Shown: piece by piece, positions 88 through 29,025 of the stretch
Numbering within the stretch: position 1 is the stretch's first letter
Layout of the letters: each line of letters begins with the position of its first letter
Origin: Candidatus Heimdallarchaeota archaeon B3_Heim
GTDB lineage: Archaea; Asgardarchaeota; Heimdallarchaeia; Hodarchaeales; Hodarchaeaceae
DNA: 32,000 bases
Reading direction: 5' to 3'
NCBI GenBank assembly: GCA_003144275.1
Contig: NJBF01000002.1
Location: 103,239-135,238, forward strand
Position numbers and translations under genes: made by a program
The notes under the pieces: model-generated
Database searches by the model: none
What the model was told of the DNA's origin: nothing
The model's input: only the letters and a program-made list of their open reading frames with translations

Positions 88-243
88 TCAAGCCACAAGT
101 AATTTCTGCTCCCCTTTTTCAAAGATTTCAATCTGTTTTTCCAGTGCTTCCCGTATAAACCCCGACCAGTTCATAAACTGATAGTTTTGCATCTTTGCTA
201 GCAGTTCCTCAGACACTCGTGTTGAGACCTGTCGATTCATCAT
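88..243 (-). CDS. Ribbon-helix-helix (CopG/VapB-like) DNA-binding protein, 51 aa (not in ORF track)
   Basis: Manual translation MMNRQVSTRVSEELLAKMQNYQFMNWSGFIREALEKQIEIFEKGEQKLLVA; beta-strand VSTRV, helix, and NWSxFIREAL typical of archaeal RHH proteins. Confidence 0.72.
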   Translation of the reverse strand: MMNRQVSTRVSEELLAKMQNYQFMNWSGFIREALEKQIEIFEKGEQKLLVA

Positions 244-429: not shown

Positions 430-1956
430 ATGGAAGTCAAAAGAATGGGTCTATTAAAGAAATTTCGGGAATTCTCCGCGAAAACCAACTTTTCTCGGAC
501 GAATTTTCCCAAAGTCAAGAAGGCATTTGCCTTCCTACTGTTCTTGGTTTTTGCAGTCCAAATCGTAGCCTTTGGCTCTTTTTTTACGCTTAATCTGACA
601 ACAAACCAAGCATTTGCTGTAAAATACGAGGAAACTGATATTCAGCAGTTCCTCGATAGTGACATACGTAACGTAACCGTGATTCTTGCTGATGCGAGCG
701 CGGTTGGTAGTGGTGCTAGGATAAGTAGTCCAATGACACTAACCCTCGACCGAATTGCCATACGGGCGTCTACGCTGCCGTACCACCCGAAAGCATTTCC
801 TACCTCATCCAGAATGTTACACAATATCTTCCCTACCTCCGAGTCCATTGCTCGTTTCGCGACTCTTCGGTCCTCCCTTGGAGGGGGTGGCGCATCATTT
901 CAGTCAATTGAAAGTATTAAAAGTATTGATGCCGTAAATGCGTTACTCAGTCTTGCGGAAGATACAAACGCTACTTCAGAATCAGTTGGCGAAAACACCG
1001 TTAGTGATGAGAAATTTGCGGTAGAAGACCTTAAAGCTGAGACCGAATACAATATTAATACTACTGCAGTGGTGACGGATCTAACCAGCCAAATCGGCTA
1101 TCTTGAAAATCAATCGGTTGAATCCGCATATCAAGACTATGCGAGTTTCCTCTATTCGAATGATAGTGTCGATGCGATTGCAGGGTCTGAAGCGGATGAA
1201 GAAAAAAATCATGATCTCTTGATTTCAGGATTTGACAACACAGAAGACGCGGTTTTAAGTATTTTGAAGTCGAATATCGCTGCTGATTATTCCACGGCTT
1301 CAAATATCTTGACAGCCGATGACGTAACGGTTGTGGATTATGCGGTCCATCATGCCAATATGACGAATTATCTTTCGTCCGCCCTCGTAGAAAAAGTGCG
1401 TGACGCCGTGACAGACTATGAAGACAGTCTTGAAGCGAATATCGCAGCCACAATTTTCGGTTTTAAAATCTACACTGCCAAAGCGGCTACCACTGCAGGG
1501 ATTCTTGCGGGTTTTCGCTCTGCCGTGGGTCGAGTGATTAGCTTTGGTCAAGCGGTAGTCAGTACTCCTCTGCGAGAGGTCAAAAAAATCGGTGGGAGTA
1601 TTAAACGCACCGTCACATCATACGCATCTAAGGTTGGTGAAGCTGGATCCAGCGCACTCAACATTGGAAAAGGGTTTCTAACGTCCGCTCTTTCGAAGCT
1701 GGGTTCAATTAGTAAGTCAATTGGCGATAAAGTGGGCAGTTTCGCTCAAAACGTTAAGGTGGGCGTCACTGGTGCTGTCAAAGGAGTCAAAGGCTTTGTA
1801 TCCAAAAGTTTCAATGCTGTCCTAGGCTCTGTAAAAAGCCTGTTCAGTTTCATTCCGATGCTAATTCTGCTGATGGTAGGTGGAGTAGGCGCGGTGCTAG
1901 TTGTAATATTCCTTATGAACCGTAAACGTGCCCCTCCTGAGGTAATGCCCTACTAG
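430..1956 (+). CDS. Putative envelope/spike-like membrane protein, 508 aa (signal peptide, acidic ectodomain, 11-mer amphipathic repeats, C-terminal TM)
   Basis: Hydrophobic N-terminal segment ending in AFA|VK; D/E-rich helical middle; G/S/A/K/V repeats with SKVG/SKLG/DKVG spaced 22 and 11 residues; C-terminal TM then RKRAPPEVMPY. Alternative start at 445. Confidence 0.6.
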   Translation: MEVKRMGLLKKFREFSAKTNFSRTNFPKVKKAFAFLLFLVFAVQIVAFGSFFTLNLTTNQAFAVKYEETDIQQFLDSDIRNVTVILADASAVGSGARISSPMTLTLDRIAIRASTLPYHPKAFPTSSRMLHNIFPTSESIARFATLRSSLGGGGASFQSIESIKSIDAVNALLSLAEDTNATSESVGENTVSDEKFAVEDLKAETEYNINTTAVVTDLTSQIGYLENQSVESAYQDYASFLYSNDSVDAIAGSEADEEKNHDLLISGFDNTEDAVLSILKSNIAADYSTASNILTADDVTVVDYAVHHANMTNYLSSALVEKVRDAVTDYEDSLEANIAATIFGFKIYTAKAATTAGILAGFRSAVGRVISFGQAVVSTPLREVKKIGGSIKRTVTSYASKVGEAGSSALNIGKGFLTSALSKLGSISKSIGDKVGSFAQNVKVGVTGAVKGVKGFVSKSFNAVLGSVKSLFSFIPMLILLMVGGVGAVLVVIFLMNRKRAPPEVMPY

Positions 1957-1983
1957 CTTCAGATCCTGGAGATGTGAAAAAAA

Positions 1984-2886
1984 ATGCAAAATACTACACT
2001 CCGAAAAAGAAGAAGTCTGACAGTTTTTCCTGTCGTTTTTCTCTTTTTTCTCTCGGTTCTGGTGCCTGTGCTCGCGTCCCCCTATACTGCGGAAATCACC
2101 ACGCTCACCCCCACTATTGATACCTCGACCTCTTCAACCTATGAAAAAACCATTGGCGTGAAGCTGATCTGGCGGATCAATTACGATAAAAGCCTCGAGA
2201 ATTTTTCCACTATTTACAGCTATGTTTACTGCAAAGTGTCAGGCAAAAGCCCTATTTTAGCGGCGAGTCAAGTGACGGAAGGTGGATCTACTTATTGGTA
2301 TACCAATTATACCTCGATTACCGAGACCCTGACATTAAATATCGATGAAGACTCGGTGGCTGGGCAAGATCTTTCTTCCGATGTGAAGATTGCGATCTAT
2401 GCCGAACTCTACAATAATTCGATATCCGCGGCTAATAAGCTAACTTCCAAGACCGCATCGATTTCCTATGGCAGTTTAGTGGGAGAAGAAGCCGCTGAGA
2501 CCGCTGACAGGGGTCTCTGGGATTATGCGCTTTTAATCCTCATGGGTCTCGGCGCATTCGTAGTGCTCGTGTTTATCATCCTGGCTGGACAGCGGTATGT
2601 CATACCATGGCTAGGCTTAAGTTCCCCTCCCCGTAATACGTTAGATTATGGGGATCGAACAAAATGGGCTGAGCGGTATGGCCCTCGTGACAAAGAAGTT
2701 CTACAGGGTAAAAAGAAAGCTGGACAGTTCAAAGACATCGTTGATCCAGGACGCTCTCGGCGTATAGACCAGAGACAAACGCATCTTCACGGGAGAAAAC
2801 CAGGGCAACTGCGACGATCACCTTCGAATCCCCGCAAAAAGATTCCTGACGCGGACCGACGTCCTCCGAAAGGGAAAAAGTGGTAA
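1984..2886 (+). CDS. Type I membrane protein, 300 aa (signal peptide, S/T-rich beta ectodomain, TM, basic cytoplasmic tail)
   Basis: Signal VLA|SP; beta-strand pattern suggesting an Ig-like fold; TM LLILMGLGAFVVLVFIILAG; tail begins YVIPWLGLSSPPR and is K/R/P-rich. Confidence 0.65.
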   Translation: MQNTTLRKRRSLTVFPVVFLFFLSVLVPVLASPYTAEITTLTPTIDTSTSSTYEKTIGVKLIWRINYDKSLENFSTIYSYVYCKVSGKSPILAASQVTEGGSTYWYTNYTSITETLTLNIDEDSVAGQDLSSDVKIAIYAELYNNSISAANKLTSKTASISYGSLVGEEAAETADRGLWDYALLILMGLGAFVVLVFIILAGQRYVIPWLGLSSPPRNTLDYGDRTKWAERYGPRDKEVLQGKKKAGQFKDIVDPGRSRRIDQRQTHLHGRKPGQLRRSPSNPRKKIPDADRRPPKGKKW

Positions 2887-2889
2887 TTA

Positions 2890-2925
2890 TCTCCCTTTTT
2901 TCTTTTTCCCTCTTTATTTCCCATT
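2890..2925 (+). terminator. Pyrimidine/oligo-T tract, possible archaeal terminator
   Basis: TCTCCCTTTTTTCTTTTTCCCTCTTTATTTCCC immediately after stop 2886. Confidence 0.35.
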
Positions 2926-2945
2926 ATTGGAGGTCTGTCTAAGCC

Positions 2946-3377
2946 ATGTTTGAGTCTTTCAAAGAAAAAGTGCTTTCTGTTCCCAGAGGTGCTATGCTAG
3001 TGCCTAAACGCTTGTATAAGACCCTCATTACCTCAAAAGGAATTCTGACTACCGAGCGCGGCAAAGTGAACATTCACAAGAAAGAAGCGTTTTTTACACG
3101 CGAAGAAATCCTCAAAATGGAATCTAGAGCTCAAAGATTCCATGAACGAATTCAATCCGATCAAGTGGGTCTTCCTATTACTTTTGAAGAATTTGAACGC
3201 CTAGAAAGACGATCTGAATGGGATGAACTGCGGACCAAAAAAAAGAGTGGGACCCGGGTCACTCTCTTAGCCACGGGATCCGAAGTGAAACGAGGTCTGA
3301 AACGGTCTGGTGTGATTCCTGGCTCCCGAAGGAAATCATTGAAACCTCCTCCTACTCAACTCAAACTGACTGACTGA
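2946..3377 (+). CDS. Basic hypothetical protein, no TM; N-terminus MFESFKEKVLSVPR resembles array leader
   Basis: GGAGG upstream; K/R-rich; leader similarity is weak. Confidence 0.7.
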   Translation: MFESFKEKVLSVPRGAMLVPKRLYKTLITSKGILTTERGKVNIHKKEAFFTREEILKMESRAQRFHERIQSDQVGLPITFEEFERLERRSEWDELRTKKKSGTRVTLLATGSEVKRGLKRSGVIPGSRRKSLKPPPTQLKLTD

Positions 3378-3454
3378 ATTCTCTCTTACTGATCTGAGCT
3401 GTGGTCTCAAATCAAAGAAAAGAGACTAAATTTCACGAGAATGGATGCTGAATA

Positions 3455-4093
3455 ATGGTCGAGAACACAACTATCATTTTAGTATTAGCGATAGGAGGTC
3501 TTGTTCTCTTATATTTTCTTCTCTATATCCCTTTCACGCGAAAAGTCGCCTGGAAAAGTGTGGTCATTCCTGCTACGACCTTGAAAAACATGCGAAATAA
3601 ACGGAAACAGCGGGCAGAGGTGGCGTATGTCTTCGATTTCAATCACCAACAAAACCGAGCTGAACGCATTCGCTTTCGCAGAGGCACTCGCGATTTTGTC
3701 ATTCCCCGTGCTAATTGGGATGACGAAGTGATTTTTCATACGCATAATAAAGTCAGCAACCCTGTAGAGAATGTTCTGCGGGAACGACCTTCGGGAGGCG
3801 ATCTTGTCCAACTCATCAGTTCGCCTCGCCTCCAAGATGGGCTGATTACCCCCTCAGGGCGGCTTCTCATCTATGAAGAAACCTCCCATACGGATCCTCG
3901 GAAAGTCAAACGGCTCGATCAAAAAGAGGTCGAGATTCAAAAACGGGTATTTCGGAAAGAAGTTACTCCCACAAAAGCGAGGGAAGTGAATAAACGTTTT
4001 TTGAGCGAAGTGAAGAAAGCGGGGATTCGAGTGCGTGAAGTCTCCCCGAATCAGGCATTGAAATTGAGAACAGAGGTACGAGAACATGGTTGA
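3455..4093 (+). CDS. N-terminally membrane-anchored basic protein (array member)
   Basis: Single N-terminal TM IILVLAIGGLVLLYFLLYIPF then K/R-rich soluble domain; overlaps next gene. Confidence 0.75.
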   Translation: MVENTTIILVLAIGGLVLLYFLLYIPFTRKVAWKSVVIPATTLKNMRNKRKQRAEVAYVFDFNHQQNRAERIRFRRGTRDFVIPRANWDDEVIFHTHNKVSNPVENVLRERPSGGDLVQLISSPRLQDGLITPSGRLLIYEETSHTDPRKVKRLDQKEVEIQKRVFRKEVTPTKAREVNKRFLSEVKKAGIRVREVSPNQALKLRTEVREHG

Positions 4094-5666
4094 CTCATTA
4101 CTCGTTATTGGTGGATTATCAGGAGGAGTCATCCTAGGACTAGTTTTGCTCTGGCTGTTAGGGAAACCAGTTTTTTCCTTACCGCTACTCGCGGCTCCTC
4201 GGTGGACAAAAAAACACCTTTACGTCATCGCTCAGCAACATAATATCAAGAATCGGTCCAAGATGTCTCGAGACGCGTTGTTACGAAAAACTCGAGGATT
4301 AAGACCCCGCTATCCCCCAACAAAAATCCCTTCACGAGTTCAGAAATTATCAGTTAAACCCCAAATCCGACCAAAACGTCGCCCAAAACAACGGGGTTTT
4401 CACAAGGGAATGGATCTTCATACCTGGGTAGTGGAGAGAAATAGACACTTGAAGGAAATTGAGAAAATTAAAGAGCCTCAAAAACGGATTCAAGCGGTGA
4501 ATAAGCTTCAAAAAAATGCGGACAAATATAGTCAATCCTCCTGGATGACGCCTGACAATCCGTATGCTAGAGTCCGTAGAGATGCTAAACGAGAGATCCA
4601 ACAGCATAAGATTGAGGTAAAACAACGAGCTAGAATAACTACTATTAAGACGGAAAAAGACCCTGAACAGATTCTCAAATTCACTGATGAAGAATATAAA
4701 ATCTGGTTGAATGCTCTGTCGGCTAAAGACCGTGAACACTATCCTCATTCCCATCATGCTTACATGAATAATTATTATCTGTATGAAAATCCCAAGAAAA
4801 TCAAATATCGGTTCATGGATACAGGTCTTTCGGCCAAAGAAGCGGACTATCAGGTTTTCTTAACAGGAAAAGAGGAATGGGAGCGACAAAGATATCCTAA
4901 ACGTGTAATTGAATATGAAAAAAATCTGCGCTTATATAAAGATGGGCGGATCGCCAGGTATCGCCCCAAGGATAAACAACCTCGGGCCAGTGATATGAGC
5001 ACAGCCACCCCTGACAAACGAATCGACGCCATAGTTGAAGGAAAAGCCATTCGGGGAGCTACGCGAGAAGAACGACGCATTGCTCATGATATTCGGAAAG
5101 CAGGGGAAACAGGCGCTAAATTTGGTACGGGAGGATTTTTGAGTAAACGGCAGAGTCAAATTACAAAACTCACGGCTGAAGAACGTAAGCTTGTCAAACG
5201 AGGGATGACTCCGATTCAAGCGAGACGATTCACCGAAAGAATCCAAAGTGCGGGGGCGGATCTTCAAACCATAGACTTACGTTCGTTAGATATCGAGTCT
5301 CAGGAGGGAATGGAAGGCTATATGGAAACACTCGCGTCAGATCAGTGGGAGGCAGCATTTGGAGGGGTGTATGGTCCCCAAAAACGTTTCAAAATTCTTC
5401 CTGCCAAGTTTGCACCTAAAGTTGTATTTCAAAACCTCGGGTGTGGGAAAGGCTCAATCATGGCCGTAGTTGAAGATCAGGGCGATTATTCACAACAACT
5501 GATAACCAAGGCGACCTACCAAGTAAAAGAAGCGGAGGCGGAAAACTTGGGCGATGGGACTATCATGGTTAAAGGAAAAACCAAAGGCAATCAGGAATTT
5601 AACCATTTTGTGCAAACGACTGACAGTTTAGAGGGAATCAAGAAAAAAGTAAGGAAAACAAAGTAA
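4086..5666 (+). CDS. Membrane-anchored multidomain basic protein with Rho_N/HeH-like module, 526 aa
   Basis: N-terminal TM, then LPLLAAPR, then WTKKHLYVIAQQHNIKNRSKMSRDALL matching the Rho N-terminal-like pattern (TKxELYxIAxxxxIxGRSKMSKxEL); remainder unrecognised. Confidence 0.7.
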   Translation: MVDSLLVIGGLSGGVILGLVLLWLLGKPVFSLPLLAAPRWTKKHLYVIAQQHNIKNRSKMSRDALLRKTRGLRPRYPPTKIPSRVQKLSVKPQIRPKRRPKQRGFHKGMDLHTWVVERNRHLKEIEKIKEPQKRIQAVNKLQKNADKYSQSSWMTPDNPYARVRRDAKREIQQHKIEVKQRARITTIKTEKDPEQILKFTDEEYKIWLNALSAKDREHYPHSHHAYMNNYYLYENPKKIKYRFMDTGLSAKEADYQVFLTGKEEWERQRYPKRVIEYEKNLRLYKDGRIARYRPKDKQPRASDMSTATPDKRIDAIVEGKAIRGATREERRIAHDIRKAGETGAKFGTGGFLSKRQSQITKLTAEERKLVKRGMTPIQARRFTERIQSAGADLQTIDLRSLDIESQEGMEGYMETLASDQWEAAFGGVYGPQKRFKILPAKFAPKVVFQNLGCGKGSIMAVVEDQGDYSQQLITKATYQVKEAEAENLGDGTIMVKGKTKGNQEFNHFVQTTDSLEGIKKKVRKTK

Positions 5667-5676
5667 AAGAAGGTGA

Positions 5677-6150
5677 ATGAAAATATCTAGCTATTCAGAG
5701 GTAATATTAGTATTTGCGATTTTTGGTGTGGGTTTTCTAGCACTTGTCCTTCTGTGGAAATTGAAGAATCCTCATCAATCAATTTTATACTTGCCCGGAG
5801 TTCCGCGCATTTTTGCGCCCAGGTTTCATTATGACGTTTCAAATTTAACTCGTGAGGAATTAGAGTCTCGATTTCGTCAGGAGACAGGGCTGACGGGCGT
5901 TTATGCTGATAAAGAAAAACGCCGGCGATTATCGAGAATTTATATCCAGCGTGAGAGAGAGGCGCGTCTCGGGAGACGGACTCAACAATTTCAACCAAAC
6001 CAGACCTCTGTCGAAAGAATGGGTCTTCCTAAAGTGGATAACGAGACTATGGAAATGTCCAGGATTAATATCACGTGGAAACAAAAAGCAGCAGCGCCTC
6101 GTGTTCTCCACAAATTGTCCAGAATACAAAGAAGAAAGGAGTTGAAATGA
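5677..6150 (+). CDS. N-terminally membrane-anchored basic protein (array member)
   Basis: TM followed by LLWKLKNPHQSILYLPGVPRIFAPR; GGTGA upstream. Confidence 0.75.
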   Translation: MKISSYSEVILVFAIFGVGFLALVLLWKLKNPHQSILYLPGVPRIFAPRFHYDVSNLTREELESRFRQETGLTGVYADKEKRRRLSRIYIQREREARLGRRTQQFQPNQTSVERMGLPKVDNETMEMSRINITWKQKAAAPRVLHKLSRIQRRKELK

Positions 6151-6151
6151 A

Positions 6152-6628
6152 ATGGTTGGTGCAGTAGAACTAACAATTATTGTGGGCTTAGGGTTAGCTG
6201 GTCTCGCGGCATTACTTCTTTTATGGAAGTTACAACATCCGCAGAGTAAGATGATGATTCAGATTCCAGGGCTTCCTGTCATGCTTGCCCCGAGTAGATC
6301 GGAACGTTTCAAACGCTTTGCAGGAAGTACGGCTAGACATGGTTATGGGACAGTCCAGGAGGTTCGCAAAACAGATGAATATCGCCGTCTTCTGAACGTG
6401 AGTTCATCCAAGGCAGCGGAAGGCTCCTCACGCGTCATTCTAGAAGAATTTCATCAATCCCCTCGAAAGGACCAGGTTCGGATGAAACGCATGGTGTATT
6501 TAGCGTCTCAATCCGCCGCTAAAGGGTCTAGGAGTGAGCGGTTTTCCCCCGACACGCGTACTAAACTCGCGGATATCGCGACCGTTTATCAGGAAACCCA
6601 TCGAGAAATGCGGGTCAAACCCAAATAA
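6152..6628 (+). CDS. N-terminally membrane-anchored basic protein (array member; leader paralogous to 5677)
   Basis: TM followed by LLWKLQHPQSKMMIQIPGLPVMLAPSR; C-terminal part unrelated to 5677. Confidence 0.75.
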   Translation: MVGAVELTIIVGLGLAGLAALLLLWKLQHPQSKMMIQIPGLPVMLAPSRSERFKRFAGSTARHGYGTVQEVRKTDEYRRLLNVSSSKAAEGSSRVILEEFHQSPRKDQVRMKRMVYLASQSAAKGSRSERFSPDTRTKLADIATVYQETHREMRVKPK

Positions 6629-6665
6629 AAAGGAAAACATGAATAATAGGAGTTGATAATTAATT

Positions 6666-7133
6666 ATGGTAGAGGTTAAGGATTTAGTTATCATAGCTGG
6701 CTTAGCCATTGCTGGTATAGCCCTGTTTTATCTCGTTCAGTGGTATATAACTTATCGCAAGTTCAAACAAGGGTTCGATATTGGCATGACTATCGCTCAA
6801 GACGAGCGAACACAGACTGGCTTACGATCAGTTTCTGATCGTTTCAAACACTTCACCGCCAAAAATAATCCCCTTCGTGCTTCTCGGCAACGGTTGATTC
6901 AAGCCCCTCGTGTTCTGATCGATAATTTAACGAGAACAGAGCAAAGAAAATTGAGAAAGGAAACCCGAGAATTCGTAAAACGTACTGATCCTAACTGGCA
7001 AAATTACTCGACTTTAGGAAAGCAAAGGGCAATAACGGCAGAGGCTAATAGAAGATTAAACCCCCGACATATTTCTGCTCAATTTGAATACGATCTCAAA
7101 AGAGAATATGACTTGATCAATAGAAATAAATGA
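6666..7133 (+). CDS. N-terminally membrane-anchored basic protein (array member)
   Basis: TM LVIIAGLAIAGIALFYLVQW; internal LIQAPR; R/K-rich. Confidence 0.75.
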   Translation: MVEVKDLVIIAGLAIAGIALFYLVQWYITYRKFKQGFDIGMTIAQDERTQTGLRSVSDRFKHFTAKNNPLRASRQRLIQAPRVLIDNLTRTEQRKLRKETREFVKRTDPNWQNYSTLGKQRAITAEANRRLNPRHISAQFEYDLKREYDLINRNK

Positions 7134-7142
7134 GCCGGGGGC

Positions 7143-7376
7143 ATGATTCCTATCCCTGATCTGTGGAGGGAAATGAAAGATCAGGGTTATACCCGATCAG
7201 AATTTGAGCGAGAATTATTCCGTTTGGAGAACGAACGGACAATTGACATACAAACTGCGTCTCAACCACGCTTTATATCTGACTCTGATCGAAATCTAGG
7301 CATCCCTCATCAAAGACGAGGGCATTTGAATTATGTTCTCTTCCGATACAATCCCAAAAAACCAATGAGGCGATAA
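7143..7376 (+). CDS. Small winged-helix-like protein
   Basis: IPIPDLWREM..TRSEFERELFRLENERTIDIQ has helix-helix-strand spacing of wHTH modules; no TM. Confidence 0.5.
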   Translation: MIPIPDLWREMKDQGYTRSEFERELFRLENERTIDIQTASQPRFISDSDRNLGIPHQRRGHLNYVLFRYNPKKPMRR

Positions 7377-7388
7377 TCCGAAGGTGAT

Positions 7389-8537
7389 TTGATGTTCGAC
7401 CGAATCAAGACTTTTCTACCAACGATATTTGTCGCACCCAAAGTAAGGAAAATAACCAGCCGCCAGAAACCATTATCTGACTTTTTCCGCCGTTCTTCTG
7501 ATCAAAGAAATCCTGTGACTCGAACCCTTCAGAAAATCCGAAATGATCTAACTAAGGAAGATCAGAAAGAAGTAGTTATTCCCCAAAGAATTAAAGCTGA
7601 TTCATTATTAAAACAAGCTAAACAGATTAAACTAAAATCAGATGAACGATACTATGTTTTTTATGAAAATGACTATACTCATCGCCCTCAAATGACTGAT
7701 AAAATAGCTCGATTACCAGATAAAATTAATGAGTCGAAATATCGATTTAATTTGAGATGGAAAGGAAAGAAAGAACCTGCTTTAGTTATTATTGCCGCTT
7801 CCAATGCGTCTGAAGCGAGGCGAAAACTCGCGGATCGCGGAAAAATTGATGTCCTTCTTACAGATACCGAATATAAAGATCGTAGAGAGATTAGAAAATT
7901 CGGGTTAAAATCTTATTATGAAGATGGGCAGTTTATTGGGTGGAGAGGCAAGATTAATCCGAAAATCTGGCAAGAAGTAACCAAATTTGGCCAGTTAACA
8001 CAAGGTTCCGAATATTCAGCTGAAGAAAGTGCCGAATCTTGGCGGGGCAGAAGATCGAAGAAAGCCCAAATAAAGCGTGACCAAGCGACCAAGGCAACAC
8101 AGCGATCTAAAGCGCATTGGGATGAAGCGACAAAGCTAGGAAAACAAATTCCTCTTGGTCAACCTATTTTAGTCGGTCATCATTCTGAAAAAAGACATCG
8201 GAGACATATCGAAAGAATTGATAGCCATGGCTTTAAAGGACTAGAAGAACACAGAAAAGCTGAGCGTTTAACAAGACAGGCTGAAAACTTAGAATACATG
8301 GCGAGACAGAAAAAAGGGATAGCTGCACAACAACATGAAGCTCATAGAGATACAATTCGACGACGTGTTAAACAAGGGAATACTCGAATATTCTTTCATG
8401 GAGCTGCTTATGGTGAGGGAACGGTGACTAAAGTATTCAAAAAATCTGCGAGAGTTAAATTTGATAAATCTGGCTTAGAAACCACAATTGATATGAATTT
8501 ATTACAACCCGTGAATGGTTCAAAAATAAAGAATTAA
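7389..8537 (+). CDS. DUF3560-containing protein with C-terminal SH3/Tudor-like barrel
   Basis: IPLGQPILVGHHSEKRHRRHIERI is the DUF3560 signature; C-terminal HGAAYGEGTVTKVFKKSARVKFD; N-terminus MFDRIKTFLPTIFVAPK has the array motif without TM; AGGTGA upstream. Confidence 0.75.
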   Translation: MMFDRIKTFLPTIFVAPKVRKITSRQKPLSDFFRRSSDQRNPVTRTLQKIRNDLTKEDQKEVVIPQRIKADSLLKQAKQIKLKSDERYYVFYENDYTHRPQMTDKIARLPDKINESKYRFNLRWKGKKEPALVIIAASNASEARRKLADRGKIDVLLTDTEYKDRREIRKFGLKSYYEDGQFIGWRGKINPKIWQEVTKFGQLTQGSEYSAEESAESWRGRRSKKAQIKRDQATKATQRSKAHWDEATKLGKQIPLGQPILVGHHSEKRHRRHIERIDSHGFKGLEEHRKAERLTRQAENLEYMARQKKGIAAQQHEAHRDTIRRRVKQGNTRIFFHGAAYGEGTVTKVFKKSARVKFDKSGLETTIDMNLLQPVNGSKIKN

Positions 8538-8570
8538 AGTAACCGTATCAAAATCTCCGAGGTAAGCGAA

Positions 8571-9464
8571 ATGGACACCTGGACCATCATCCTATTGCTA
8601 ATGTTCAGTTTATTGATTATTCTTCTTTTACTATTATTTTTCTCTAATCCGAATACTACCAGTATTTTGGGGATCCCTTTTCAGTTATTTGAAGCCCCTC
8701 GAAAGGTAGCAATCGGGGCGGTTAGACGCATTCGAAAGCGCAATTATATCGGCACAGGGGAATATTCAGAGGCGTTTTTAGTTGATGATATGGTTGTTAA
8801 ACGGAACCGAGAAAGGTCTTATTATAATCCCCGTCTCTATAAGAGAAGAGAATTTCTCAAAAAGTCCAAGGAGGAGATGAGTGGTGAATACAATCTCTAT
8901 ACACAATTAAAAAGTAAAAATTACACGCTGTTGCCTGAATGGATGCACCAATATCAGGGCACTAATGCTCGGTATTACTTGATCCGTGAACCCGCGAAAA
9001 TTCCTCTTCAGGAGGGCCAAGAAAAAAAATGGTTCCCTCAATGGCGAAAAAATGCTGTTTCACAAAAAGCATACAATAAATTCTCCCTAGAATTGTTTCA
9101 GATTGCTAGGGATCATGGACATTTTGAAGATCGACTTCAGCCTGGATTGCGAGAAGATGGCTCATTATTCCTGTATGATTTAGGTCATTTTAAAGTGCGA
9201 GAGACCCTTGGCCATGATCCTGAAGAGAGGGAATGGAAACGCCTGGAAAGCTACTATACAACAATGAATCGTCTAGATGGGTTGAGTGAACAAATCGAGC
9301 TTCCCTATACGATTCCTGACTTTGTCATCAATGATCATATTGGTTATTATAAAAGGGAAATCAGAGAACGAAAAGCCAAGGGCTATCCTAAAGGGATGCT
9401 TGAATATCACCAAAACGAACTTCAGAGATGGGAGCGAGTGAAACAGACGAAAGAAATAAGTTGA
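8571..9464 (+). CDS. Membrane-anchored protein-kinase-like protein
   Basis: N-terminal TM + SILGIPFQLFEAPRK; Gly loop YIGTGEYSEAF, VVK lysine, E in MSGEYNLY, then HFEDRLQP and LYDLGHF (DFG-like). Confidence 0.55.
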   Translation: MDTWTIILLLMFSLLIILLLLLFFSNPNTTSILGIPFQLFEAPRKVAIGAVRRIRKRNYIGTGEYSEAFLVDDMVVKRNRERSYYNPRLYKRREFLKKSKEEMSGEYNLYTQLKSKNYTLLPEWMHQYQGTNARYYLIREPAKIPLQEGQEKKWFPQWRKNAVSQKAYNKFSLELFQIARDHGHFEDRLQPGLREDGSLFLYDLGHFKVRETLGHDPEEREWKRLESYYTTMNRLDGLSEQIELPYTIPDFVINDHIGYYKREIRERKAKGYPKGMLEYHQNELQRWERVKQTKEIS

Positions 9465-9469
9465 TTAGT

Positions 9470-9529
9470 ATGCTTGACAAATTGAAGGCACTGATACCGC
9501 CCATTCCTTTTTTTAAAGTCTCTGTCTGA
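9470..9529 (+). pseudogene. Truncated array-leader remnant MLDKLKALIPPIPFFKVSV*
   Basis: ATG 5 nt after the kinase-gene stop; resembles the 7389 N-terminus (MFDRIKTFLPTIF); short protein-like frames continue to about 9791. Confidence 0.35.
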
Positions 9530-10232: not shown

Positions 10233-11042
10233 GTGTCAATGATAATTGAAGACTTAACAATTTTAGGCCGAGCTGCACCTGATTTAATGAAAAGTAAAAT
10301 GGTTAAAACATTTTGTGTTGCAGGATATTCTCCATCTAGGGGTTTCATTAGAGTGTATCCTACGTCTATTGATTGCCCTATGAAATTTTGGAACGTTGTT
10401 AGGGTTCCATTAGAGCGAAATCTTCAAGATAGTAGGTTTGAAAGCTGGAAAATTCAAGGTTCAAAATCCGAATGGGATAATCTTGATAGTAAAATCGAAG
10501 AAATTGGTACATATCCCAAAAAAGAAAGACGACAACTTGTTTTCAATCTTGTTGATGGTTGCCGTAATGATATTAACGATGCCCATAGGAGTTTGGGAAT
10601 TATTAAGCCCACAAAAATTAAGGGTTACTTTCAGGAACGAGAAAAAATATCAGAAAGCGAACAAAAAACTCTTTTAGACTTTTTAGATATTCCAAAACCT
10701 AAAAATCATTGGATTAAAACAAAAGCTGAATATCAATTCATACCTTATATTAAATATACTTGTTCTGACTGTAAATCCAAGCAAGGGTATCATAATCAAC
10801 AATTGCTTTCTATTGAAGCTTACGAATGGATGCGGAAACACCCTGATAATCTTGATCAACTTTGGGAGAATTTTCGAATCAATGATAAAGATTACGATGC
10901 ATATTTATTCATTGGTAATCAAGCTCGTCGTCGAAACGCGTTTATGGTAATTAGTATTTTGAGATTCAAAAAATCTAATTATTCATTGTCACGGACAAGA
11001 CCATTAATCCCTTGGAAAAAAGTAGAAAAACCCAAATCATAG
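10233..11042 (+). CDS. OB-fold-like protein of a family I associate with DUF488 loci (CxAG...IRxYP...DxRxES), with Cys/His cluster
   Basis: TFCVAGYS..GFIRVYP, VRVPLERNLQDSRFESWKI, SLGIIKP, YTCSDCKSKQGYH. Confidence 0.55.
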   Translation: MSMIIEDLTILGRAAPDLMKSKMVKTFCVAGYSPSRGFIRVYPTSIDCPMKFWNVVRVPLERNLQDSRFESWKIQGSKSEWDNLDSKIEEIGTYPKKERRQLVFNLVDGCRNDINDAHRSLGIIKPTKIKGYFQEREKISESEQKTLLDFLDIPKPKNHWIKTKAEYQFIPYIKYTCSDCKSKQGYHNQQLLSIEAYEWMRKHPDNLDQLWENFRINDKDYDAYLFIGNQARRRNAFMVISILRFKKSNYSLSRTRPLIPWKKVEKPKS

Positions 11043-19940: not shown

Positions 19941-20081
19941 ATGAGTGATGTTAAGGAAATTATTTTTAAAACACGAATTAACGAATCCCGACGCATAAAA
20001 ATTCCCCCTTCATCAGACTTTTTCGAAACAGGGGAGGCAGTGCGTGTTACAGTCGAAAAACTAGCGGAGGCGGAGGCCTAA
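19941..20081 (+). CDS. AbrB/SpoVT-like swapped-hairpin regulator, 46 aa (not in ORF track)
   Basis: Manual translation MSDVKEIIFKTRINESRRIKIPPSSDFFETGEAVRVTVEKLAEAEA; RIxIP...GxxVxV pattern; TAATG overlap with next gene. Confidence 0.65.
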   Translation: MSDVKEIIFKTRINESRRIKIPPSSDFFETGEAVRVTVEKLAEAEA

Positions 20082-20473
20082 TGCCTCTTCGTACCGTTTT
20101 TGGTTTAGAGGGCAACCCTCTGGAGATTATACAATTCGAGGGGTTTGAATGTAATTGCTCTTTTTGTCAGGACTCAATTACTGAGGGGGTGGTAATCAGA
20201 TATAACGAGCAGCAGAAGATAATATTATGTTTACCCTGTTTTGATTTTCTTCAGGAGGGTTTTGATTCAATCAGAGTCGGGCAGAGTCAGCCCCATTCAA
20301 TCAAGGAAGTCGAAGCAACCACCGATCTCTCCCAGGACGAATTTCTAAACAAAGTCGTCCAAGACCCCCAAGCTCGGAATTTTTTGCTCCGACGCATGAA
20401 ATTCCAAAATAATGTGACTCCTGATCCTGAGCTCGAAAAACGCATTCACTTTTTGGAGGCAGGTCCTCAATGA
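20081..20473 (+). CDS. Zn-finger-containing hypothetical protein
   Basis: CSFC...CLPC; translationally coupled on both sides. Confidence 0.7.
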   Translation: MPLRTVFGLEGNPLEIIQFEGFECNCSFCQDSITEGVVIRYNEQQKIILCLPCFDFLQEGFDSIRVGQSQPHSIKEVEATTDLSQDEFLNKVVQDPQARNFLLRRMKFQNNVTPDPELEKRIHFLEAGPQ

Positions 20474-20775
20474 CGGTTTCTTCTGAAAGTAGAGACAAGA
20501 TTCCCGACTGGCGGACTTACTCTGATGAGGAAAAAGCTCAGCTGCAAAAAGAAGCATTAGACATTCTCAACAACTATGAGCTTCCTACCCCTAACGCAGA
20601 CGATTCTATTCGACGGTTTAATCTTCCCAAGGGCTTTCAAATCCGTTGGAGAAAATGTGGAAAATCCTGTAGATGTCAGAACGGGGAGCTGCATGGTCCG
20701 TATTTGTATAAAGTAACCTATGACAAACAAACCAAAACCCAGCATTGGCTTTACATTGGGAGGTATGAGCCGTGA
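20470..20775 (+). CDS. DUF6788-like protein (CGKxCxC..HGPY motif), common in archaeal viruses/plasmids
   Basis: RWRKCGKSCRCQNGELHGPYLY...WLYIG. Confidence 0.7.
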   Translation: MTVSSESRDKIPDWRTYSDEEKAQLQKEALDILNNYELPTPNADDSIRRFNLPKGFQIRWRKCGKSCRCQNGELHGPYLYKVTYDKQTKTQHWLYIGRYEP

Positions 20776-21008
20776 GCCGTTGGAATCATCCCAAAAACAA
20801 AAAGAAACCAGAACAGAGCATTTCGGAGACCGAACGCATTATTTTCGAGGATAAAGTTCCGCTCTCAAAGCAGAAGCAGGAAATATCCCCCAAACAAGCC
20901 TCTCTCTCGATTCAACAAGCCACTAAACTGTTGAATTATCACGGATCCATTCATCTGAGAAACTTGACACCCAACTTGACAAACTTGACACGAAAGGAGC
21001 GAAAATGA
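20772..21008 (+). CDS. Hypothetical protein
   Basis: GTGA/ATGA overlaps; 3' end carries AACTTGACA repeats. Confidence 0.55.
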   Translation: MSRWNHPKNKKKPEQSISETERIIFEDKVPLSKQKQEISPKQASLSIQQATKLLNYHGSIHLRNLTPNLTNLTRKERK

Positions 21009-28034: not shown

Positions 28035-29025
28035 ACAATTTGACGAAGGGGTCCTCCTCATCGAGAATTATCTTGAAGAAGGAAATTACTCAGAAACCAG
28101 TCGTTACCAACGACGTTATTTATTAAAGCGATTATTCCGAGCAGAAGGATTTTCTTTAAATAAAAGTCCTTTAGAGCTGAAGAATATCATTTTCAATGAA
28201 TTTCCTTACAGAAGGGGAGGTTCCTTCAATTTCATGCACACCATATTCAAGACCTTCTTTGATTATTGTATTACAAATGCCCTTTATCTTGATAGTAACC
28301 CTCTTGAGCTGCTCAAACGACGAAAGGGATCCAAAACTCTTCCCAATCCATTCACAGCTTCCCAAGTCGAAATTATTATGAGAAAATGTCCTCCTTCTCA
28401 TCGATTTATGCACGAACTCCTGTTAAACACAGGGATTCGACTTGATGAACTCTGTCATTTGAAGTTTACAGATTTTGATTCTGAGAGAAAGATCCTTCAC
28501 GTTCGGAACCGTTCTTCTGGAGGAGGAGCTAAAGGAGATAAAGCAAGAGATATTCCCGTAACTGATCTGCTCTTAAAAAAATATCAAACTTTTCTGGTTG
28601 ATTATCGCTTAAAAGCGAAAACTAAATCTGACATTGTCTTTATTAGTCGAAAGAATAGACCTATAGTCCCCCGTTCTGTGCAATCTCGAATGTTTGCTCT
28701 CAGAGACAAATTAAGCTTTCGCATTCATGCTCACAGATATAGAACGACTTTCGCTACGAATCTTCACAAAGACGGTGTTTCCATTTTCACCATTGCGCTC
28801 TTAATGGGTCACGAAGATATTTCGACTACTCAAAACTATATTCTTGTAACGCTAGATGAACAAAGAAGAGCTATTTCCCAAGGAACCCCACTGGGAAAAC
28901 AAGAGCTTGCAGTTACTAAGATTGAACAGCTGAACCGAGAGAAACAGGATCTTGTCGCTCTCGTAGATAATCTCATTCAACAAAATGAGACCTTATTACA
29001 ACGAATCAGGAGTCTTAACATTTGA
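28021..29025 (+). CDS. Tyrosine recombinase/integrase (XerC/D-like), probable CTG start
   Basis: TGIR (R), GAKG (K), HAHRYR (HxxR), LMGH, TTQNY (Y). The frame is open from 27997 and encodes ENYLEEGNYSETSRYQRRYLLKRLF upstream of the first ATG (28234); AAGGAG at 28005-28010 precedes CTG 28021. Confidence 0.9.
   Translation: MSQIKQFDEGVLLIENYLEEGNYSETSRYQRRYLLKRLFRAEGFSLNKSPLELKNIIFNEFPYRRGGSFNFMHTIFKTFFDYCITNALYLDSNPLELLKRRKGSKTLPNPFTASQVEIIMRKCPPSHRFMHELLLNTGIRLDELCHLKFTDFDSERKILHVRNRSSGGGAKGDKARDIPVTDLLLKKYQTFLVDYRLKAKTKSDIVFISRKNRPIVPRSVQSRMFALRDKLSFRIHAHRYRTTFATNLHKDGVSIFTIALLMGHEDISTTQNYILVTLDEQRRAISQGTPLGKQELAVTKIEQLNREKQDLVALVDNLIQQNETLLQRIRSLNI

Follow-up and report, generated by a model that had tools for sequence, protein, structure and literature searches.

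An array of membrane-anchored basic proteins in a Heimdallarchaeota genome, with a recurrent A-P-[K/R] motif suggestive of processing or sorting in an undescribed virus-like or vesicle-forming element

The stretch of DNA analyzed here, referred to below as the window, comprises 32,000 nucleotides (positions 103,239 to 135,238 of contig NJBF01000002.1) of Candidatus Heimdallarchaeota archaeon B3_Heim, an Asgard archaeon, and lies within a 135-kb contig of a 3.9-Mb genome that is 94% complete. At the left end of the window, between positions ~80 and ~9510, lies a 9.4-kb block that consists of a small divergent open reading frame (ORF; 88-243) and eleven co-directional genes, named here after the position of their first nucleotide, which extend from 430 to 9464. 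The array of proteins encoded in this block carries, at the ends of N-terminal membrane anchors and between protein modules, a short motif at which the proteins of an undescribed element, virus-like or vesicle-forming, might be processed or sorted. The block differs from its surroundings in G+C content (0.38-0.47 vs 0.30-0.37), and the tblastx similarity between the window and two related contigs, L003 and L004, starts at ~80 (78-94) and ends at ~9510, with different flanks; given these bounds and the exchange of flanks, we conclude that the block moves as a unit. A check of the flanks for direct or inverted repeats (att sites, termini) revealed none that was convincing. The block is very rare and has no annotated relatives. 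All of the ORFs listed in an earlier note on this DNA, made from the sequence alone, were found in place; the genes of the block are as follows.

88..243, minus strand: small divergent ORF of 51 amino acids; left edge of the block, conserved in L003 and L004
430..1956, plus strand: type I membrane protein with a signal peptide, an acidic ectodomain, a C-terminal transmembrane (TM) segment and a short tail
1984..2886, plus strand: type I membrane protein with a signal peptide and a TM segment at residues 182-200
2946..3377, plus strand: basic protein of 143 amino acids; TM-less leader that ends in LVPKR
3455..4093, plus strand: membrane-anchored Tox-JAB-2/DUF4329-like metalloenzyme, candidate processing protease
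4086..5666, plus strand: precursor-like protein of 526 amino acids; TM leader, LLAAPR at DNA positions 4194-4202
5677..6150, plus strand: TM leader, NPHQS..LPGVPRIFAPR (DNA 5815-5823), basic module A
6152..6628, plus strand: TM leader, IPGLPVMLAPSR (DNA 6287-6295), basic module B
6666..7133, plus strand: TM leader, spacer of 55 amino acids, LIQAPR (DNA 6903-6911), basic helical module
7143..7376, plus strand: module of 77 amino acids, in relatives the C-terminus of a single gene
7389..8537, plus strand: short amphipathic leader, MMFDRIKTFLPTIFVAPK (DNA 7434-7442), DUF3560 protein
8571..9464, plus strand: TM leader, NPNTTSILGIPFQLFEAPRK (DNA 8694-8702), kinase-like domain; the right end of the block is at ~9510

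A Kyte-Doolittle scan detected one N-terminal TM helix in each of the 3455, 4086, 5677, 6152, 6666 and 8571 proteins, and in four of these (4086, 5677, 6152 and 8571) the sequence [FLIM]-x-A-P-[R/K/S] is found 15-21 residues past the helix. A-P-[R/K/S] is also present at residue 16 of 7389 and, internally, at residue 80 of 6666, residue 443 of 4086 and residue 140 of 5677, the last of these being a second site in that protein (AAAPR, DNA 6094-6102), close to its C-terminus. Since the position two residues before the alanine is mostly occupied by F, L, I or M, the motif can be written as phi-x-A-P-[K/R]. The earlier note had reported the six N-terminal TM helices, the aligned motif behind four of them, a TM-less copy in 7389 and an internal copy in 6666, all of which were recovered. 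Its copy in 2946 (VLSVPR) is not the conserved one, which is LVPKR at residues 17-21, where the leader of the orthologues ends in APKR (AMMAPKR or AIMAPKR). The motif that it noted after the TM segment of 1984, whose basic cytoplasmic tail opens with LGLSSPPR-NTLDYGD, gains substance from the relatives, in which the family has LKAPSR-DTLDYGD (L004), LYAPKR-DTLVYQDG (L013) and LKAPAK (L009).

The motif is strongly enriched in the array, both over residue shuffles and over host ORFs with an N-terminal TM helix. There are 7 copies of AP[RK] compared with 1.24 expected, with none of 2000 shuffles reaching 7, and the excess is similar at three related loci. Among the 339 ORFs of at least 100 amino acids with an N-terminal TM helix that formed the genome comparison set, P..AP[RK] follows the helix in three, all three of them in the array (Fisher P = 3e-6), and [FLIM].AP[KR] is 35-fold enriched over the genome ORFs (5 observed vs 0.14 expected; Poisson P = 4e-7). 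Each of the 7 copies of AP[RK] in the window either closes a leader or marks a boundary where relatives show fusion or fission, and none lies inside a conserved domain. Across the copies, Ala and Pro are each encoded by all four of their codons, Arg by five and Lys by both; because the codons for these residues vary, it is the peptide that is under selection, not a DNA repeat. Moreover, the motif recurs (PFFAPKR, LYAPKR, IPAPK, EAVPR) beside 3455 homologues of only 25-37% identity. In the 5677, 6152 and 8571 families the conservation extends over a longer stretch, NP..S.L.[LI]PG.P...AP; a search of a set of 5.8 billion proteins with the leader alone (residues 1-60 of 5677) matched only the query itself.

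With respect to topology, the flanks on the N-terminal side of the leader helices have a net charge of -2 to 0; on the other side, the following 20 residues have a charge of +2 to +6, as seen in 26 of the 28 leaders, which come from eight loci. Under the positive-inside rule, these charges imply that the N-terminus is outside and the cargo cytoplasmic, so that the leaders are not secretion signals. We infer that the leader TM helix is an N-out/C-in anchor with the motif on the cytoplasmic side, where the earlier note had expected it; the copy in the 1984 tail is predicted to lie on this face as well, as is the catalytic domain of 3455. A Sec or class III signal peptide was rejected for the leaders given that their N-flanks are not positive and the basic residues come after the helix; a signal-peptide cleavage position was likewise rejected for the motif, which lies 15-21 residues past the helix. 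A second type of anchor lacks a TM helix: 17-25 residues long and of the form M-[FL]-x-x-[FLI]-K, it ends in AP[K/R] or a variant and is present in 2946, 7389, L003_7840, P0003 (an L004 polyprotein described below), L004_7046, L003_9599 and L014_2524. The hydrophobic moments of these peptides are 0.47-0.60 (0.51 for 2946), each above the mean of its own shuffles, which fits a predicted in-plane membrane helix; the leader sequences are related, however, and the test is weak. Thus, two unrelated types of anchor, a TM helix and a TM-less amphipathic peptide, end in the same motif.

The proteins behind these anchors are basic (pI 9.4-10.8, with 16-23% K+R), and of the descriptions given in the earlier note, those of K/R-rich cargo and a DUF3560 protein hold, and that of a kinase-like protein finds support in predicted structure. 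The 7389 protein scores 77.3 bits with DUF3560 (PF12083; cut-off 27.2, E 1.4e-21), and an Atlas model of 8571 (mean predicted local distance difference test, pLDDT, 0.66), a protein with no Pfam match, matches clusters of RIO1, Kdo, APH and Pkinase structures with template-modelling scores of 0.51-0.61. Past its leader, 4086 comprises a HeH/Rho_N-like motif, a long basic helical region, KFAPK (DNA 5412-5420) and a C-terminal domain of 80 amino acids. Its description as Rho_N-like stands at a sub-threshold level (E 0.0015-0.04 and 14-19 bits vs a cut-off of 24.9 across three orthologues); SAP domains occur in distant array members, in one case, L014_2524, above the Pfam cut-off (27.2 vs 23.9 bits). 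The first 4086 module after the leader (4194-4300) is HeH/Rho_N/SAP-like, and a TM-tethered HeH DNA binder has the architecture of the eukaryotic inner-nuclear-membrane LEM/HeH proteins, which makes membrane-tethered HeH/SAP-like DNA binders in an Asgard element of interest. The claim that the proteins are unrelated past the motif holds in part: 5677 is 30% identical to 6152 over an alignment of 77 residues, and 6152 in turn has a weak alignment with 6666 that spans 141 residues.

The 430 protein has TM segments at residues 33-51 and 477-495 and G/A/S/K amphipathic repeats; it gave no informative Pfam or PHROG match and no usable Atlas match. Its orthologues in L003 and L004 are 61-63% identical and begin ~28 residues later than the ATG at 430, so that the true start is probably downstream of this ATG. 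Distant homologues of 430 stand before the 3455 family in L007 and L010.

The relatives of the block, four near and about seven distant, all come from metagenome assemblies. Among 400 genomes of the phylum, the 3455 family is present in two, namely the host genome and one that has a distant form without a TM helix. Three near relatives were identified in the set of 5.8 billion proteins, on the Logan contigs L003, L004 (with L006) and L005, and a profile search of 1.84 billion representatives added seven more distant homologues of 3455. In L007, L009, L010 and L013-L015 the gene order is 430-like, 1984-like, 3455-like, followed by small proteins with an N-terminal TM helix. One DNA run from marine sediment, dated 2011, yielded short contigs, 90-97% similar, that cover parts of the block; no RNA run is among the sequencing runs listed for it. 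Close relatives of 4086 and 430 were not found in IMG/VR, 4086 was not found in 40 related genomes, and pattern scans for the 3455 family in GTDB genome contigs and JGI metagenome contigs gave no confirmed hit. The arrays of the relatives include two proteins that are absent from the window: an extra signal-peptide protein of ~210 amino acids (L003:7198-7821, L004:5316-5954) and, after the kinase-like gene, an additional short-leader protein (L003:9599-9985, L004:9501-9941). A distant relative from another Asgard family, L018 (G079:C21, 116-5014), opens with an integrase and encodes a 428-residue protein with 430-type G/A/S/K repeats and a C-terminal TM segment, as well as a multi-TM ORF of 120 amino acids with EExxxK and HxxxN motifs that is CPBP-protease-like by eye; it ends in a TM-less basic protein of 316 amino acids with a C-terminal Tox-JAB-2-like domain.

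Comparison with the near relatives reveals shuffling of modules. The 5677 and 6152 genes correspond to a single gene in L003 (L003_5613) and L004 (L004_4246), and the join in the fused protein reads APQ, eleven residues, LDAPSRS. Residues 33-158 of 6152 match the C-terminal half of the fused protein, where LDAPSRS follows module A with no TM helix; the split 6152-type half, for which the window and L005 (L005_3856) each have a separate TM leader, still begins with APSRS or a variant, that is, module B keeps APSRS behind either a TM leader or module A. Similarly, the L003 orthologue of 4086 (P0002) stops a few residues short of KFAPK and is without the 80-residue C-terminal domain, which in L004 is found within the polyprotein P0003, after HAPQ. 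P0003 consists of a short leader (GAPR), a VP2-like module, HAPQ with the 4086 C-terminal domain, IQAAPH with the body of 6666, and the 7143 module; its motif copies (APR at 15, APQ at 112 and APH at 198) each precede a module, and its modules are elsewhere separate genes or parts of other window genes, three being common with the window. The VP2-like module (PF25632, E 7.3e-10, above the cut-off) is seen only in L004. Compared with 6666, two extra modules are inserted in P0003 exactly at the IQ-AP junction. The 6666 and 7143 proteins are also fused in L003_6439, as they are in P0003.

The leaders are exchanged as well: L003_7840 has the same first ~50 residues as 7389, followed by an unrelated body without DUF3560, and L005_963 and L005_2896 have a common leader with different sequences downstream. 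The swapping of cargo behind constant leaders that the earlier note envisaged is thus seen in related elements, and the leader with its motif behaves as a portable unit. Overall, four of six breakpoints coincide with, or lie within 10 residues of, a copy of the motif. An apparent loss of leaders from the DUF3560 and kinase-like genes of L004 was rejected, as it came from short gene calls and the full ORFs keep their leaders.

The best conserved gene of the array is 3455, with 56-86% identity among near relatives, and E55, H95-T-H97, S113 and D116 are invariant in 10 homologues of 25-86% identity. DUF4329 has been equated with Tox-JAB-2, a domain marked by conserved E, H[ST]H, S and D residues (Zhang et al., 2012; PMC3482391); this set is present in 3455, with a spacer of 15-22 residues, not 7, between HxH and S. 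The Pfam DUF4329 model matches two of 10 family members (best E 2.4e-7), the 3455 protein of the window itself being unmatched. A Foldseek search of AFDB with an AlphaFold2 model of 3455 (pLDDT 64.7) retrieved JAB and DUF4329 proteins (E 2.5e-4 to 1e-2, template-modelling scores 0.3-0.4), along with phage head-morphogenesis (SPP1 gp7/MuF-like) and portal proteins, matched in their C-terminal domains. The corresponding search of PDB gave nothing at E <= 0.001, with P. furiosus JAMM1 in third place (E 0.67), and a profile of the 3455 family gave nothing meaningful against solved structures. The 3455 protein would be the most likely candidate for an enzyme that cleaves the motif. In a protein of 2549 amino acids (P0013), 10 separate stretches match residues 105-137 of the 3455 profile; these would be repeats of the segment LRERPS..D...SPR..D..ITPSG.

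We tentatively favor, without regarding it as established or even as probable, the reading that precursor proteins are tethered to the cytoplasmic side of the membrane and cut at the motif, with 3455 as the candidate protease. The basic proteins would be made as precursors held at this face by either of two anchors, a TM helix of N-out/C-in orientation or a short N-terminal amphipathic helix, and [F/L/I/M]-x-A-P-[K/R] would be the proteolytic site that ends every anchor and separates the modules of the longer proteins. The co-conserved Tox-JAB-2-like enzyme 3455, itself membrane-anchored and facing the cytoplasm, would do the cutting, and cleavage would free the mature modules beside the type I membrane proteins 430 and 1984. 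The cargo would include HeH/SAP-like, VP2-like and DUF3560 modules, the kinase-like enzyme and several orphans. The presence of the motif between polyprotein modules and at fusion and fission points is better explained by cleavage than by a single address, and the three copies in P0003 are more than a single address would need. What the analysis shows is the motif with its enrichment and peptide-level conservation, its place at most module boundaries, the exchange of modules, a topology deduced from flank charges and the conserved catalytic residues of 3455; that the motif is cut, that 3455 is the cutter and that the products end in a particle or vesicle is inference.

Several observations weigh against this scheme. 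No cleavage product has been observed. Two of the six breakpoints are off the motif: the 6666/7143 fission point has no AP motif, and the swap behind the 7389 leader occurs ~35 residues past APK. The motif is also degenerate, with FSSR and LSAK in 5677 orthologues, SSPPR in 1984, and NAVR, SAPPS and QAPE in distant arrays. JAMM enzymes do not usually cut next to a proline. The AlphaFold2 models of 3455 and of P0003 (pLDDT 50) are weak, so that the location of the motif in linkers is only suggestive. Tox-JAB-2 domains have been argued to lack the tunnel for the ubiquitin tail and might be nucleases, not peptidases (PMC3482391). Furthermore, no capsid, portal or terminase gene was found with PHROGs and Pfam on the neighboring large ORFs.

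The block as a whole is perhaps best explained as a morphogenesis-like module of a rare Asgard mobile element. A virion context is hinted at by only three features, namely the VP2-like module, the resemblance of the 3455 fold to head proteins and the presence of two type I membrane proteins; no protein of the window matches any Fusello family, and a VP1/VP3-type capsid protein was not detected. Sorting into a virion or vesicle built with 430 and 1984, as the earlier note had it, is unsupported; no capsid or other hallmark gene was found. We regard as rather unlikely the more specific scenario that the block serves the assembly and maturation of an undescribed lineage of Asgard enveloped viruses or of vesicle-transferred plasmids, in which a JAB metalloprotease would release membrane-anchored DNA-binding core proteins and an enzyme beneath two envelope glycoproteins.

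Among the alternatives to cleavage, it is possible, if on the unlikely side, that the motif is an uncleaved address: the juxtamembrane proline-rich stretch down to A-P-[K/R] would be bound by a common partner, such as the cytoplasmic tail of 1984 or 430, 3455 or a host factor, which would gather the anchored proteins at a site of budding or vesicle formation. The longer stretch conserved in the 5677, 6152 and 8571 families exceeds a typical protease site, the distance of the motif from the membrane is fixed, the leaders are portable among cargos, and the motif also occurs in the 1984 tail. However, an address leaves unexplained the intermodule copies far from any anchor, three of them in one polyprotein, and the same motif at the end of TM-less leaders; moreover, no binding partner has been identified.

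An explanation without any specific signal, which we consider unlikely, is that the leaders are paralogues spread by duplication and recombination within one element family, that A-P-[K/R] is a structural feature kept by descent, for instance a helix stop or hinge that joins anchor and basic domain, and that modules were shuffled when leaders of similar sequence recombined. The members of this small family are close relatives of one another, 5677, 6152 and 6666 retain weak similarity past the motif, the 4086-type leaders within one element (L005_963 and L005_2896) are alike, and two motif sites share an 18-nt DNA similarity. Descent alone, however, does not account readily for a motif that ends two unrelated types of anchor and also occurs internally, whose codons are unlike at nearly all copies, and which is kept beside the 25-37% identical homologues of 3455 even though neighboring residues and spacers change.

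The setting of the block brings up a further alternative. The window carries an integrated island that encodes a ParB-DUF488 fusion, an HNH protein and two DNA methylases; two further features mark its right part.

28234-29025: tyrosine integrase, in the island
30551: host Fe-alcohol dehydrogenase, beyond the island

Given this company, the block could be a membrane DNA-handling system of an integrated plasmid-like element, involved in segregation, DNA transfer or defense, and not a particle module; the HeH/SAP, DUF3560 and kinase-like proteins would act at the host membrane, and the role of the motif would be a separate matter. DUF3560 is known in plasmids as well as phages, and the failure to find a capsid gene is in keeping with such a system. 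Nevertheless, we deem it improbable: the block is distinct in G+C content (0.44 vs 0.30-0.37) and has different neighbors in each relative, one relative has a module of the virion DNA-binding family VP2, and the fold of 3455 resembles C-terminal domains of phage head-morphogenesis proteins.

A late-domain mimic, in which the A-P core would recruit a host ubiquitin E2 variant (UEV) protein of the endosomal sorting complex required for transport (ESCRT-I) and 3455 would act as an AMSH-like deubiquitinase, is very improbable, for although A-P is the key dipeptide of PTAP, P(T/S)AP recruits UEV in retroviruses, and the host is Asgard-like, encoding full-length actin (441 bits) and a coiled-coil E2 variant that is Cys-less, the UEV match of this variant is under the Pfam cut-off (24 vs 27 bits), the residue before the alanine is variable, and the residue at -2 is hydrophobic, not proline. 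A canonical ESCRT late domain was rejected outright, as the array proteins of four elements contain no P[TS]AP or PPxY, and YPx(n)L matches in them lie only inside the kinase-like domain and in one small ORF.

As for the remainder of the locus, the divergent ORF at 88-243 is likely a regulator of the array; its N-terminus is ribbon-helix-helix-like by eye, as judged by sequence pattern alone. The strongest tie of the island to known viral protein families is the match of a protein of 269 amino acids (10233-11042) to phrog_25907, a family of unknown function (E 2.1e-38). A second GC-rich patch of the window spans 20001-21000 (G+C 0.445). The region 8.5-0.5 kb upstream of the window (L002:12000-20000) has a low G+C content and is encoded chiefly on the minus strand; it carries an OLD/AbiEii-like AAA_21 ATPase, a PIN_8 protein (plus strand) and a multi-TM ORF of 282 amino acids with a weak Rhomboid match (E 0.002). 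Further upstream lie large unannotated plus-strand ORFs of 571, 1781, 522, 175 and 622 amino acids.

Asgard mobile elements are barely known, and few virus families have been proposed (10.1101/2021.07.29.453957; 10.64898/2026.02.13.705702). The logic suggested for the block, namely an anchor, a junction motif, an exchangeable basic module and a conserved enzyme encoded alongside, is testable. If the motif is a cleavage site, the block would provide a new viral or plasmid maturation protease together with its substrate code, a peptidase role for a membrane-anchored Tox-JAB-2 domain and, in the form of the 430-1984-3455 triad with the leaders, a signature for metagenome searches.

Several known systems offer parallels. 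Polymorphic toxin systems, which include MuF phage toxins (Zhang et al., 2012; PMC3482391), resemble the array in having variable C-terminal modules that are exchanged by recombination behind a constant N-terminus; their repertoire includes Tox-JAB-2/DUF4329, and 3455 has a fold like the C-termini of MuF/SPP1 gp7-like head proteins. Unlike the toxins, the cargos of the array are DNA-binding-like and the anchors would keep them cytoplasmic. Pfam detected no secretion or trafficking domain in the array proteins, Pfam and PHROGs revealed no toxin or immunity family, and there are no small immunity-like ORFs between the contiguous genes and no spare cassettes. The array, which the earlier note had set beside polymorphic toxin/effector systems, is not a polymorphic toxin system: it has no secretion domain and no recognized toxin or immunity domain, and the cargo is kept inside the cell. 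The fusellovirus VP2 family (PF25632) comprises basic DNA-binding virion proteins that are also found in unrelated archaeal and bacterial viruses (PMC9608457). The module in the L004 polyprotein is like VP2, whereas the window itself is without one.

Retroviral Gag offers a functional analogy only: it is a membrane-anchored precursor with a basic nucleic-acid-binding module that is cut between modules, whereas the anchors of the block involve no lipid modification, there are several separate precursors, and there is no homology. The head proteins of phages T4 and phiKZ have N-terminal targeting peptides that are removed at a short motif. The T4 internal proteins and phiKZ inner-body proteins are similar to the array in that short N-terminal peptides stand on otherwise unrelated, often basic proteins, and each peptide terminates in a short consensus site at which larger precursors are cut as well, the cargo being delivered with the DNA. 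In contrast, the leaders of the block are membrane anchors, the motif is phi-x-A-P-[K/R] as opposed to L/I-x-E or S/A/G-x-E, no capsid or prohead protease gene was found here, and cleavage is putative. The adenovirus protease AVP cleaves at M/L/I-x-G-G/x and the vaccinia protease I7L at A-G/x, and both enzymes are deubiquitinase-like. Unlike the JAB-type metalloenzyme that is the candidate here, they are Ulp1-like cysteine proteases, and these viruses have eukaryotic hosts and no sequence relationship to the block; nevertheless, their sites resemble the motif in form, with a hydrophobic residue, any residue and two small residues preceding a new N-terminus, and their substrates are basic DNA-binding core proteins and polyproteins.

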